This document shows, piece by piece, positions 1,027 to 4,462 of a DNA stretch of 4,462 bases. Source of the DNA: a virus (lineage: Duplodnaviria; Heunggongvirae; Uroviricota; Caudoviricetes); the IMG/VR virus record IMGVR_UViG_2778261594_000004, positions 1 through 4,462 of that record. The stretch is one strand, 5' to 3'. The translations under genes and the position numbers were made by a program. Each line of letters starts with the position of its first letter. Positions within the stretch are counted from its first letter, which is position 1. The notes below the pieces were generated by a model, which searched no databases, was not told the DNA's origin, and saw only the letters and a list, made by a program, of their open reading frames with translations.

Positions 1027-1671
1027 CTAGAGGCTGAACTGAACACCTTTTGCTACAGCAACGATGTTACATTCCGGTGTAAGTAAGGATGATTGATAGC
1101 GTGGGTTAAGGGGGGCTAAGTACACGAGCTTTCCATCAATAACTAATTTTTTTATAGTCATGGATGGTTCGTTTGTGAGTGGATCTGGGACTATTACTGC
1201 GACGATGCTACCATTTTTATATTTTTCGCCAGGCCTCATGATCACTGTGGCTCCAACTGGAATGCTTGGGGACCCTGATGGATTGTGCATAGTATCATCA
1301 GGCATTGAAACGGCAAAATCTCCCTCCTTGACATCAAAGAATGTGGTGATCCTGTCGACATTTCCCATAGTTTTCTCTCCTTTTAATATTAGGAAAGAAA
1401 TCGCTTCTCCCCAAGAAAGGTATGGGATTTGGGTACCTGGATTTTTCTGCACAAGGGATGATTCAGGTGATGATACTCCATACAGGAGATAGGACTCAGT
1501 AGTGCCTAGTGCTAGGGCTAATTTACTAAGAGCTTTGCTACCTGGTTCGTTTAGATCTTTCTCCCAGTATCCTATTGTTACCCCAGTTACGCCAGAAAGC
1601 TTGCCAAGTTCAACTTGGGTCAGACCTTTGTCTTTTCTGAGTTTCTTAAGCCTAATGCCAAGGCTTTCCAT
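1027..1671 (-). CDS. cI: Phage repressor, lambda cI-like (N-terminal XRE-type HTH, C-terminal S24/LexA-like autopeptidase domain)
   Basis: 214-aa ORF with GGGAG SD 6 nt upstream of ATG 1671..1669. The C-terminal 90 aa aligns by eye with lambda cI: AVSM vs GNSM (catalytic Ser), PSIPVGATVIMRPGE vs PSFPDGMLILVDPEQ, TIKKL vs TFKKL (catalytic Lys), LAPLNPRYQ vs LQPLNPQYP, PECNIVAVAKGV vs CNESCSVVGKV. N-terminus has a typical HTH (LTQVELGKLSGVTGVTIGYWEKD). Confidence 0.93.
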   Translation of the reverse strand: MESLGIRLKKLRKDKGLTQVELGKLSGVTGVTIGYWEKDLNEPGSKALSKLALALGTTESYLLYGVSSPESSLVQKNPGTQIPYLSWGEAISFLILKGEKTMGNVDRITTFFDVKEGDFAVSMPDDTMHNPSGSPSIPVGATVIMRPGEKYKNGSIVAVIVPDPLTNEPSMTIKKLVIDGKLVYLAPLNPRYQSSLLTPECNIVAVAKGVQFSL

Positions 1672-2420: not shown

Positions 2421-2488
2421 CCAACAATATTTATACCGGATTTCTTTCGGAAGTTCGTGGGTAAAGTTCGGTATCAGAAGAGGTGAGT

Positions 2489-3520
2489 ATGGCTAATGCC
2501 TGGCTCAGATTGTGGCATGACATGCCAAATGACCCCAAGTGGCGAACGATTGCCAGGGTATCAGGACAGCCAATCGCAACAGTGATGGCAGTGTATATCC
2601 ATCTTCTGGTGAGCGCGTCACGAAATGTCACGACATGTCACGGCGTGTCACTACGTGGTCACATTGATGTCACGACGGAAGATTTAGCAAGTGCGCTTGA
2701 TGTGACGGAAGACGTAATTGATTCAATTTTGCATGCAATGCAGGGGCGGGTTCTGGATGGTGACCTTATTTCCGGATGGGAAAAACGTCAGGTGCTGAAA
2801 GAGGACAATGGTAACGTTTCGCAAACGGCAAAATCCCCGGCAGAGCGCAAGAGAGCGCAGCGGGAGCGGGAAAAGCTGCGGAAACATAATGCTGATTGTC
2901 ACGATGAGTCACGACGTGTCACGCATCTGTCACGACAAGTCACGACAGATAAAGATACAGATACAGAATTAAACCCCACACATAACGCGCGCGAGAGTAT
3001 TCCGACCAGTGAGTCGAATGGTGCGCCGTTGCAGACAGCCGAACCTGAATACCTGGACGGCCTGAGCGAACCGATCGGGAAATTTTCGATGACTACTGTC
3101 TGGCAGCCGTCGCCGGATTTTCGACAACGGGCAGCAGTGTGGGGTATGGCTCTGCCTGAGCCGGAATTTACACCTGCAGAGCTTGCCGCATTCCGGGATT
3201 ACTGGATGGCGGAGGGGAAGGTTTTCACGCAGGTTCAGTGGGAGCAGAAATTTGCCCGCCACGTGCAGCACGTCAGGGCACAGGTAAAACCAGTCAGCAA
3301 GGGGGGAAGTCATGCAGCATCAGGTGGCACGGCATCACGGGCAGTTCAGGAAATCCGGGCAGCACGCGAACAGTGGGAACGTGACAACGGATTTATCAGC
3401 AACGGAAACGGCCTGGAAGCTGTGGGAGCTTATGGGGGAGGTGTATTCGAACCGCTGGACTCAGAAGAACGGGGCCGCACCTTCGAAGCTCTGGATTGCC
3501 CAGATTGGTGCGATGACTGA
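2489..3520 (+). CDS. Phage replication initiator (replisome-organiser-like N-terminal domain, DnaT-like C-terminal region), lambda O functional analogue
   Basis: ORF track starts at GTG 2483; ATG 2489 is more likely (AGAGG 5 nt upstream). N-terminus AWLRLWHDMPNDPKWRTIARV fits the phage replisome-organiser pattern; C-terminal FTPAELAAFRDYWMAEGKVFTQVQWEQKFARHV resembles DnaT-type domains (from memory). Contains iteron arrays internally, as lambda O contains ori. The last ~70 codons (3312-3520) are low-complexity and overlapped by the P-like gene in another frame, so the true 3' end is uncertain. Confidence 0.85.
   Translation: MANAWLRLWHDMPNDPKWRTIARVSGQPIATVMAVYIHLLVSASRNVTTCHGVSLRGHIDVTTEDLASALDVTEDVIDSILHAMQGRVLDGDLISGWEKRQVLKEDNGNVSQTAKSPAERKRAQREREKLRKHNADCHDESRRVTHLSRQVTTDKDTDTELNPTHNARESIPTSESNGAPLQTAEPEYLDGLSEPIGKFSMTTVWQPSPDFRQRAAVWGMALPEPEFTPAELAAFRDYWMAEGKVFTQVQWEQKFARHVQHVRAQVKPVSKGGSHAASGGTASRAVQEIRAAREQWERDNGFISNGNGLEAVGAYGGGVFEPLDSEERGRTFEALDCPDWCDD
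2617..2676 (+). repeat. Iteron array 1: six direct GTCAC(G) repeats at 10-11-bp spacing (putative ori initiator-binding sites)
   Basis: GTCAC units begin at 2617, 2627, 2637, 2647, 2658 and 2669, spaced 10,10,10,11,11 bp, i.e. one helical turn. Core TGTCACG. Confidence 0.6.
2898..2946 (+). repeat. Iteron array 2: five direct GTCACG(A) repeats at 10-11-bp spacing, followed by an AT-rich stretch
   Basis: GTCACG units begin at 2898, 2908, 2918, 2929 and 2939, spaced 10,10,11,10 bp. Immediately followed by 2947-2973 (agataaagatacagatacagaattaaa, about 23% GC), a candidate unwinding element. Confidence 0.6.
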
Positions 3521-3974
3521 ACAGCAAATCCGTCTGGTCTGCCGTCAGTGCATGGACCGCTGCCGGGCGGGTGAAACGTGGCCCCCGGACCTGGCTGAGT
3601 TTGTTGCACTGATTTCGGAGAGTGGGGCAAATCCATTTGGTCTTACGGTGGATGCCGTGATGGAAGAGTACCGGCGCTGGCGCAATGAATCCTGGCGATA
3701 CGACGGGAGTGATAAATACCCGTGGCCACAGCCTGTGCTGTACCACATCTGCCTCGAAATGCGTACCAGAGGGATTGAGCGCCAGATGACGCAGGGTGAG
3801 TTAAAACGACTTGCGGAACGGCAACTGACGAAATGGGCAAAGCATGTTGGTAACGGGATGAGTGTTCCGCCAGTGCGACGACAACTGGAAGGGGCGAAAC
3901 ACCCGCAAGGGCCAACGCCAATTGAACGGCTGAAACAGGAATACGAACGCCGGAAGGCAGCTGGTTTTATTTGA
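3312..3974 (+). CDS. P: Lambda P-like replication protein (putative DnaB helicase loader)
   Basis: Aligns by eye with lambda P: LWIAQIGAMTEQQI vs QWVLAFRENGITTMEQV, PPDLAEFVAL vs PSPGQFVAW, KYPW vs SYPW, MTQGELKRLAERQLTKWAKHVGNGMSVP vs LTDAELRRKAADELVHMTARINRGEAIP. Start is uncertain: ATG 3312 (AGGGGG SD 6 nt upstream, 220 aa, overlaps initiator by 209 nt), ATG 3432, or ATG 3513 (overlaps initiator stop as ATGACTGA, 153 aa). P-like similarity begins upstream of 3513, favouring an earlier start. Confidence 0.8.
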   Translation: MQHQVARHHGQFRKSGQHANSGNVTTDLSATETAWKLWELMGEVYSNRWTQKNGAAPSKLWIAQIGAMTEQQIRLVCRQCMDRCRAGETWPPDLAEFVALISESGANPFGLTVDAVMEEYRRWRNESWRYDGSDKYPWPQPVLYHICLEMRTRGIERQMTQGELKRLAERQLTKWAKHVGNGMSVPPVRRQLEGAKHPQGPTPIERLKQEYERRKAAGFI

Positions 3975-4007
3975 ATCTGAGAAACGATTTTGTCGGAGGA
4001 AATTTTA

Positions 4008-4462
4008 ATGGAAACCGTATTTGACGCACTGAAAGCACTGAAAAAAGCCTCTTCACAGGTAGTGGCGGCCCGCCTTGGAATCAGCCGTGAAGATGCGGTC
4101 AACGAACTGTGGAAACTGAAGCGCCGTGGTGAAGCGGATAACAAGGGGTCGATGTGGTGGCTGACTCAGGCAGGTGAAAGTGAACCAGTGTCACCGGTAC
4201 CGAAAGTGACAGCGCAAATGCTGATTAAGGCGATTGAACAACATGGCCCACAAACGGCAGATGAGCTGGCACTGATGTTCGGGATTACCTCCCGCCGGGC
4301 GAATTCATCGCTGGCCATGGCAATCAGCAAAGGGCGTCTGATTCGCGTGAATCAGGGCGGTAAATTTCGTTACTGCATACCGGGTGCTGATTTACCGGCA
4401 GAGCCGGAAGCTGCATCCGTAGCGGAAACCGATGGTAAAGCCTTTCCTCAGCCAGCAGGTGT
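4008..4462 (+). CDS. Hypothetical protein with two tandem winged-helix-like halves, 3' end outside the window
   Basis: ATG 4008 with GGAGG 8 nt upstream; open to the window end (151 codons). Two internally similar segments (aa ~4-56 and ~68-128), each with a GIS/GIT-R motif typical of small HTH/winged-helix domains. Not in the ORF track because there is no stop in the window. Confidence 0.7.

Follow-up and report, generated by a model that had tools for sequence, protein, structure and literature searches.

The DNA analyzed here is a window of 4,462 nucleotides (nt), the beginning of the IMG/VR virus record IMGVR_UViG_2778261594_000004, and carries a lambdoid replication module of the Rac-like/O157 prophage type. 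In this module, the gene for a replication initiator with a DnaT-like domain is followed on the same strand by the gene for a helicase loader resembling the P protein of phage lambda (the P-like gene, or P), and the two open reading frames (ORFs) overlap out of frame. The initiator gene starts at GTG 2483, the choice made for its RefSeq relatives, or at ATG 2489, and stops at TGA 3518-3520. Because a TAA at 3285-3287 ends at 3287, the P frame is open from 3288, and it contains ATGs at 3312, 3432, and 3513. The first of these is preceded by a Shine-Dalgarno (SD) sequence, AAGGGGGG, containing a tract of six G's (G6, 3301-3306), whereas the last is combined with the initiator stop in ATGACTGA (3513-3520). 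Counted from ATG 3312, the overlap measures 209 nt (233 nt from where the P frame opens); the initiator is read 69 codons beyond this P start, and P lies in its +1 frame.

This geometry had been noted in a previous examination of the letters of the window (the original prediction), and all of its coordinates were found to be correct, including the opening of the P frame, the TAA, the G6 tract, the ATG at 3312 with its good SD, the initiator end, and the 209-nt overlap. Four explanations had been offered, i.e., genuine overprinting, an indel or sequencing error, a +1 frameshift fusion, and a downstream P start, the first of which is supported by conservation of the start, a switch of constraint within the overlap, and maintenance of the frame. 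We consider it likely that the 209-nt out-of-frame overlap is genuine, with P starting at ATG 3312 in the +1 frame and running to 3974 (220 amino acids, aa), the initiator running to TGA 3518-3520, and the two halves of the overlap playing complementary roles.

Recurrence of the overlap and signals of the P start

Relatives were collected by a pattern scan of one genome per species, which gave 37 loci, 35 of them usable, from Escherichia, Salmonella, Citrobacter, Klebsiella, Enterobacter, Pluralibacter, Pectobacterium, Serratia, Erwinia, Yersinia, Rouxiella, and other genera. Twenty-five representative loci from other Enterobacterales were used in resampling tests, and 22 sequences were aligned over the region that begins with the DnaT domain and ends at the P stop. 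Of the 35 usable loci, 33 have a long upstream ORF that shares ~150 to 230 nt with the P frame, in the same frame relation as in the window, and the recurrence of the two-frame arrangement is far beyond chance. The two exceptions, both from Erwinia (L033 and L041), carry a P gene without an upstream initiator and with ordinary-looking chromosomal genes on both sides, and these P genes still carry the N-terminal W.LW..M..IYSNRW..KNG region. Thus, the conservation of this region is not a by-product of the initiator frame.

The signals for an internal start recur as well. An SD-like motif followed by an ATG, open to the YSNRW motif, was present in all 25 representative loci, compared with 5.2 expected when initiator codons were resampled synonymously. 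In every locus, this ATG lies 35 to 46 codons upstream of YSNRW, with a GGAGG-like sequence 5 to 10 nt before it. The SD falls in Gly-Gly codons of the initiator, typically GGA-GGT, and the ATG always falls on an initiator NAT codon (H, N, Y, or D) and the initial G of the next, so that T and G are fixed while the amino acid varies. In two loci (L016 and L018), there is no further ATG, GTG, or TTG from this ATG to the W.LW motif. The conservation of SD and ATG was used here instead of ORF length, since the mean chance of the P frame being open over 3312-3392, given the initiator amino acids, is already 0.69, and length in this part is no evidence.

The G6 tract had been proposed as a site of slipped-strand indels, and one explanation was that an indel or sequencing error had falsely lengthened the initiator ORF. 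Homopolymers are indeed error-prone, and the exact 76-nt stretch does not occur at 100% in complete Escherichia coli genomes (best match, 98.7%). However, O157:H7 strain TR01 likewise has G6 and differs from the window around the G tract in a single base, substituted at 3310, and G6 is present in complete O157:H7 genomes. Substitutions give close relatives G5T or G7 without altering length or frames, and distant ones carry GGAGGT, while the long initiator tail and the overlap are found in 33 loci of other species. Such an error is therefore extremely improbable, and the tract, which varies by substitution while the frames stay unchanged, is better explained as the SD from which P is started than as a site of slippage.

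Irregularities were observed in individual loci. The solitary P-like genes of Erwinia are intact (L033, 2492-3118, 208 aa; L041, 2474-3043, 189 aa); that of L033 lies, judged from translations, between a TtcA-like ORF and a DEAD-box (DbpA-like) ORF, like the neighborhood of the E. coli Rac attachment site. These genes may be domesticated loaders or prophage remnants. In Leclercia adecarboxylata NCTC13032 (L040, ~2441-2692), the P frame passes into the initiator-frame tail after ...QVMG through a frame change of 1 nt at the G-run in ATGGGGGA, corresponding to window positions 3432-3440, which may be a homopolymer assembly error or mark a pseudogene. Broken P frames also occur in L007 (E. albertii) and L043, and the P gene of E. 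coli O111:H8 strain 8234 (L005, 1536-1849) is truncated by IS1203. The pseudogene call made in L005 by the Prokaryotic Genome Annotation Pipeline (PGAP) begins at the equivalent of 3432, with an 89-nt initiator overlap, at odds with the 153-aa calls of the same pipeline.

Constraint in the two frames

Among the 22 aligned sequences, identity at initiator codon positions 1/2/3 was 0.69/0.69/0.46 upstream of the overlap, position 3 being the lowest, and the same pattern was found in 3312-3392 (0.63/0.70/0.46). In 3393-3520, the values were 0.54/0.75/0.77, with the lowest at position 3 of P, and this P-frame periodicity is kept in the P-only region (0.44/0.78/0.82). Sliding windows placed the switch near 3392; it is sharp, taking place within ~15 nt, and precedes the RefSeq start at 3513 by 120 nt. 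Within 3315-3392, initiator third positions had a conservation of 0.447, compared with 0.466 elsewhere in the initiator. Since they are no more conserved here than elsewhere, P residues 1 to 27 are free to vary.

Maintenance of the initiator frame beyond the hand-over was examined by resampling P codons synonymously, with the codon usage of the P-only region, over the 35 codons after the hand-over in the 25 loci. Only 4 initiator-frame stops were observed, compared with 30.7 expected, whereas the P-only region used as a control had 176 observed and 188.6 expected. Moreover, the first initiator-frame stop falls in one two-codon window in 17 of the 25 loci (1.7 expected), with T-ending codons for seven amino acids. 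The standalone L041, which has no initiator, does have initiator-frame stops in the tail stretch. Selection therefore keeps the initiator frame open to a fixed end while hardly constraining the sequence of the tail. P third positions in the overlap were somewhat more conserved (0.54 versus 0.44), a difference inflated by Trp and Met codons. Taken together, two marks of a genuine long same-strand overlap were found here: a conserved internal SD with its ATG, and maintenance of both frames by selection, with sequence constraint that is marginal for the initiator tail and absent for the P leader.

A sharp hand-over near 3392 would also be expected from a programmed +1 frameshift, at G6 or near 3390, that yields an initiator-P fusion, and P does lie in the +1 frame of the initiator, with GGG-GGG-A able in principle to slip by +1. 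Nevertheless, the tract is not kept as a homopolymer (GGAGGT, G5T, and similar in relatives), and no conserved slippery sequence was found at the frame junction among the relatives. In addition, conservation in the hand-over region is low in every phase, its indels, of 6, 21, and 24 nt, are multiples of three, and there would be no need for an SD and ATG to be conserved or for the initiator stop to be maintained. The only fusion-like products seen were two database proteins, each from a single contig, in which P is fused with a DUF1376 initiator part (P0106, 333 aa) or with DUF1627 (P0032, 291 aa), and both are probably assembly indels. The frameshift is thus very unlikely.

Several points weigh against a genuine 209-nt overlap with P starting at 3312. 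The loci share descent and came from P-derived patterns, so the binomial P values overstate independence, and the resampling tests ignore the relatedness of the loci, so the significance given by their P values is a maximum. P-specific constraint is absent over codons 1 to 27 of the long form, and the argument that this leader is translated therefore comes from the conservation of its SD and ATG and from the absence of alternative starts. Without Trp and Met codons, the third-position excess of P in the overlap is marginal (0.47 versus 0.42, P = 0.027), and for this reason we claim neither purifying selection on the sequence of the initiator tail nor a function of that sequence. The structural model of the 220-aa protein, described below, has a predicted template modeling score (pTM) of just 0.49, and the P annotated by PGAP has 153 aa in E. 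coli (180 aa in Salmonella, Klebsiella, and others).

Encoded proteins, annotated starts, and surroundings

The P-like protein matched PF06992 with 58 bits (cutoff, 26; E = 1.3e-15) over residues 58 to 187 of the 220-aa form. This match begins at nt 3483, 10 codons upstream of Met68, so that recognizable P sequence is indeed encoded inside the overlap, as first suggested, and conserved residues lie upstream of Met68 as well: among 46 homologues, W49, K52, N53, G54, P57, and W61 are invariant or nearly so, and the AW.LW motif lies in the same part. A profile of 25 homologues matched the lambda P chains in PDB (E = 1e-6), and NCBIfam holds no family for either the long or the short form. BLASTP of the long form against lambda P aligns residues 85 to 192 alone, and homology of the N-terminal domain is thus not shown by sequence alone. 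An AlphaFold2 (AF2) model of the 220 aa, based on the 46-sequence alignment, had a mean predicted local distance difference test score (pLDDT) of 76. In this model, residues 1 to 26 are disordered (pLDDT <50) and are followed by helices at residues 25 to 45, 47 to 53, and 59 to 66 (pLDDT, ~79 to 87), all ahead of Met68, and then by helices at 70 to 85 and beyond. All significant Foldseek matches in PDB were lambda P, including the full-length chain 9oa1_Z (212 columns; E = 1e-5), and domain III superposed on 8v9s with a root mean square deviation of 1.2 Å over 72 residues, while the global TM-score is low (0.39) because domain orientations differ. Sequence profile and fold thus both place the protein in the lambda P helicase-loader family. 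In lambda P itself, which has 233 aa, domain I (1-29) is disordered and domain II (~30-119) comes next (PMC12661323). The modeled 220-aa form mirrors this layout, and a 153-aa form would lose half of domain II.

In the initiator, the DnaT domain of PF17948 was detected with 62.6 bits (cutoff, 25), in line with the RefSeq label of its relatives, "DnaT-like ssDNA-binding domain-containing protein." PDB DnaT chains matched this domain with E = 1e-20, and its pLDDT is ~90 to 95. A Pfam scan at E ≤ 0.01 returned PF17948 alone and not the lambda-O-type family Phage_rep_O; the initiator resembles lambda O in its position and in having iterons inside the gene, but membership in the O family is not supported. 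The AF2 model of the initiator covered its last 154 residues (the fragment encoded by 3056-3517) and predicted a disordered linker (fragment residues 79 to 92), a C-terminal helix (residues 95 to 110, nt 3338-3385), and then a disordered tail; searching proteins with the C-terminal half yielded largely partial sequences and contributed little apart from the alignment for this model. The ~27 initiator codons in 3312-3392 encode the conserved segment SRAVQEIRAAREQWER, predicted to be helical, and the last ~42 codons encode a Gly-rich, acidic tail predicted to be disordered. The original prediction had described the whole initiator part of the overlap as a Gly/Ala-rich low-complexity tail, which holds for the last ~42 codons but not for the first ~27. 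In each half of the overlap, one frame is thus predicted to be ordered and is conserved, while the other is predicted to be disordered.

Database records disagree on the P start. PGAP in RefSeq and several GenBank phage records place it at the equivalent of 3513 (153 aa, 8-nt overlap), Stx2a/PPompW records start later still (140 aa, no overlap), and PGAP uses the equivalent of 3432 for homologues from Salmonella, Klebsiella, Citrobacter, and Pectobacterium (180 to 181 aa). Other records and metagenome gene calls give 215 to 223 aa, and forms of 220 to 223 aa are thus already present in the databases. A start at 3513, with ordinary 8-nt coupling through ATGACTGA and an untranslated P frame upstream, agrees with the RefSeq and GenBank annotations and with the ATG-A[CG]T-GA layout kept in 17 enteric loci, which could serve termination-reinitiation. 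It is nonetheless improbable, considering that P-frame periodicity sets in ~120 nt upstream (from ~3392), that 11 loci have L, F, or C in place of Met68, that the invariant residues W49 to W61 and three confidently predicted helices lie upstream, that standalone P genes encode the upstream region, and that the only SD is a poor one, GGTG, 2 nt upstream. An ordinary short overlap would have been indicated, according to the original prediction, by initiator homologues sharing the C-terminal tail together with P homologues starting at the equivalent of 3513; the tail is shared, but the P homologues do not start there. A minor short isoform may still arise from 3513 by termination-reinitiation, in the enteric subgroup or in some hosts.

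For a start at ATG 3432 (180 aa, 89-nt overlap), there are many 180- to 181-aa entries in databases, the homology-based pseudogene call by PGAP that opens there, and a nearly invariant Met41. Yet P periodicity and the AW.LW motif begin ~40 nt upstream, a well-spaced SD is missing, Met is absent in two loci (L024 and L025), and the conservation of the SD and ATG far upstream would have no reason. Met41, moreover, falls within the predicted helix 25-45 and is probably an internal residue of it. This start is therefore unlikely, and with P initiated at 3312 the usual annotation probably cuts ~67 aa off the loader.

The features of the window are listed in Table 1. The two iteron clusters inside the initiator gene, each of five repeats and ~270 nt apart, are presumed to be the replication origin by analogy with lambda, because the lambda ori lies inside gene O (PMC6022878). 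The 3' two-thirds of 2480-3980 (from ~2950) share 86 to 88% identity with Escherichia phage Rac-SA53 and the PPompW/Stx2a phages, and 1253 of the 5426 complete E. coli genomes, many O157:H7 strains among them, contain the stretch 3080-3980, in roughly 2,400 copies altogether. The YdaT-family gene and the cro-like gene overlap by 4 nt (ATGA at 1995-1998), and two stacked minus-strand ORFs sharing one base (215-601, 128 aa; 601-753, 50 aa) lie 3' of the repressor gene. An AT-rich operator-like element (TTGAATATAAAT...) occurs in three copies (951-980, 1680-1709, and 1733-1762), two of which are inverted between the cI-like and cro-like genes; the third, 729 nt off, follows the repressor gene closely and may serve as a remote operator for looping.

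Table 1. Features of the 4,462-nt window, with those of the overlap and its two genes first
Feature	Positions	Strand	Basis or remark
Replication initiator ("phage replisome organizer," YdaU-like) with DnaT-like domain	2483..3520	+	ORF list, PF17948, RefSeq relatives
Lambda-P-like helicase-loader gene, long form of 220 aa, proposed true coding sequence	3312..3974	+
Two iteron clusters inside the initiator gene, ~10-nt period, (A/C)TGTCACGAC	2617-2676 and 2898-2954		Repeat search families D1, D2
DnaT-like three-helix DNA-binding domain of the initiator, aa 199-265	3083..3283	+	Pfam, PDB DnaT, AF2
Gly-rich initiator linker, predicted disordered, holding SD and start codon of the P-like gene	3290..3331	+	AF2 pLDDT <50
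SD of the P-like gene, containing G6	3299..3306	+	5-nt spacer before ATG 3312-3314
Overlap part 1: initiator constrained (helix 3338-3385); P leader aa 1-27 unconstrained, predicted disordered	3312..3392	+
Overlap part 2: P constrained (helices aa 25-45, 47-53, 59-66); initiator tail predicted disordered, frame and end kept	3393..3520	+
In-frame ATG, Met41 of the long form	3432..3434	+	RefSeq start of 180-aa homologues (Salmonella, Klebsiella, others)
In-frame ATG, Met68 of the long form	3513..3515	+	RefSeq/GenBank start of the 153-aa form, 8-nt overlap
Lambdoid prophage immunity and replication region	4462-nt window
cI-like repressor	1027-1671	-	Helix-turn-helix and S24 peptidase
P22-Cro-like gene	1771-1998
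YdaT-family ("toxin") gene, lambda cII position	1995-2420
DUF1627 gene, start only	from 4008 onward

Interpretation and comparison with known systems

If the long overlap is genuine, ribosomes would start P at 3312 within the translated initiator ORF, from an SD written in Gly-Gly linker codons, and ribosomes on the initiator would continue to 3518-3520, so that 209 nt would be read in two frames. From 3312 to ~3392, a conserved initiator helix would face a freely evolving, disordered P leader; from ~3393 to 3520, the first three helices of the P N-terminal domain would face a disordered initiator tail. The internal start probably limits P synthesis or couples it to that of the initiator and may set the initiator:loader ratio, and no promoter-like site for a separate P transcript was found within 3000-4100. 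Limiting or coupling P synthesis is plausible because lambda P is toxic through sequestration of DnaB (PMC4926192).

The C terminus of lambda O is held to bind P, and the N terminus of P is thought to bind O (PMC6022878). By analogy, the C-terminal helix of the initiator and the N-terminal domain of P may be interacting surfaces, and the overlap would physically interlock these two presumed interaction determinants, keeping them linked. Initiators with differing central regions (the DnaT type and at least three others) share the C-terminal GG..[HN]A...S.AVQQIRAAREQWER segment and tail before this P family, so that the shared unit is the initiator C-terminal helix together with P. On this comparison, the recombination boundary of the replication module lies inside the initiator gene, upstream of the shared helix. 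A bolder and rather doubtful extension is that the overlap is a selected device, in which the disordered acidic tail is functional (e.g., as a partner-binding tip or as a translational-coupling track limiting starts on a toxic loader) and specificity determinants are co-inherited at lambdoid recombination.

No description of this particular overlap was found in the open-access full-text literature, and an earlier account may exist elsewhere. The module, both protein families, and overprinting as such are known; this particular overlap is contradicted by the current reference annotation. About a quarter of complete E. coli genomes, O157:H7 included, and many other Enterobacterales contain the module. 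Should the long form be correct, the RefSeq entry assigned to these genomes, WP_000139447.1 (153 aa), is without ~67 residues, including three helices that belong to the domain thought, in lambda P, to contact the initiator, and studies of structure, interactions, or expression that rely on the annotated protein would be working with a truncated loader. Moreover, with its sharp hand-over and complementary order and disorder, the locus would be, for a double-stranded DNA (dsDNA) phage, an unusually clear natural case of a long same-strand overlap in which one frame is held open with its amino acid sequence nearly unconstrained, and would bear on why phages keep such overlaps.

The closest relatives are the ydaU/ydaV-like modules of the Rac/O157 type (Rac-SA53, PPompW phages, and many E. 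coli prophages), with 86 to 99% nucleotide identity; these have the same two frames, SD, ATG, and stop and differ in annotation alone (140, 153, 180, or 220 to 223 aa). As in lambda, the initiator gene precedes the loader gene downstream of cro and the gene at the cII position, and iterons lie inside the initiator gene, although lambda has a single block of four rather than two clusters. The loader is homologous to lambda P (PF06992; PDB 8v9t/9oa1), of similar size (220 versus 233 aa), and likewise has a disordered N-terminal segment followed by helical domains, but identity is ~25% and confined to lambda P residues 84 to 203. A further likeness to lambda O/P is that the initiator C terminus travels with P, as expected if it binds P (PMC6022878). 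In contrast, lambda O and P overlap by 4 nt (39582-39585) rather than 209 nt, and the initiator has no Pfam match to lambda O and carries a DnaT-like domain instead. Residues 192 to 267 of the initiator match the C-terminal DNA-binding three-helix bundle of E. coli DnaT, far below the equivalog cutoff (94.5 versus 201 bits); DnaT is without the C-terminal helix and tail of the initiator, and the N-terminal, iteron-encoding part of the initiator is unrelated to DnaT. Among dsDNA phages, the commonest overlap is 4 nt, the longest shared across families was 185 nt in one survey, and long conserved ones are rare (PMC7017920). Same-strand reading in two frames is also found in overprinted viral pairs such as those of phiX174 and lambda Rz/Rz1 (PMC8227390), where disorder and biased composition mark the younger or unconstrained frame. 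The present case differs from these in being a terminal, tail-to-head overlap of two old genes with known homologues rather than a new gene within an old one, and in that constraint changes frame midway, so that the disordered extension of each protein faces the ordered part of the other.

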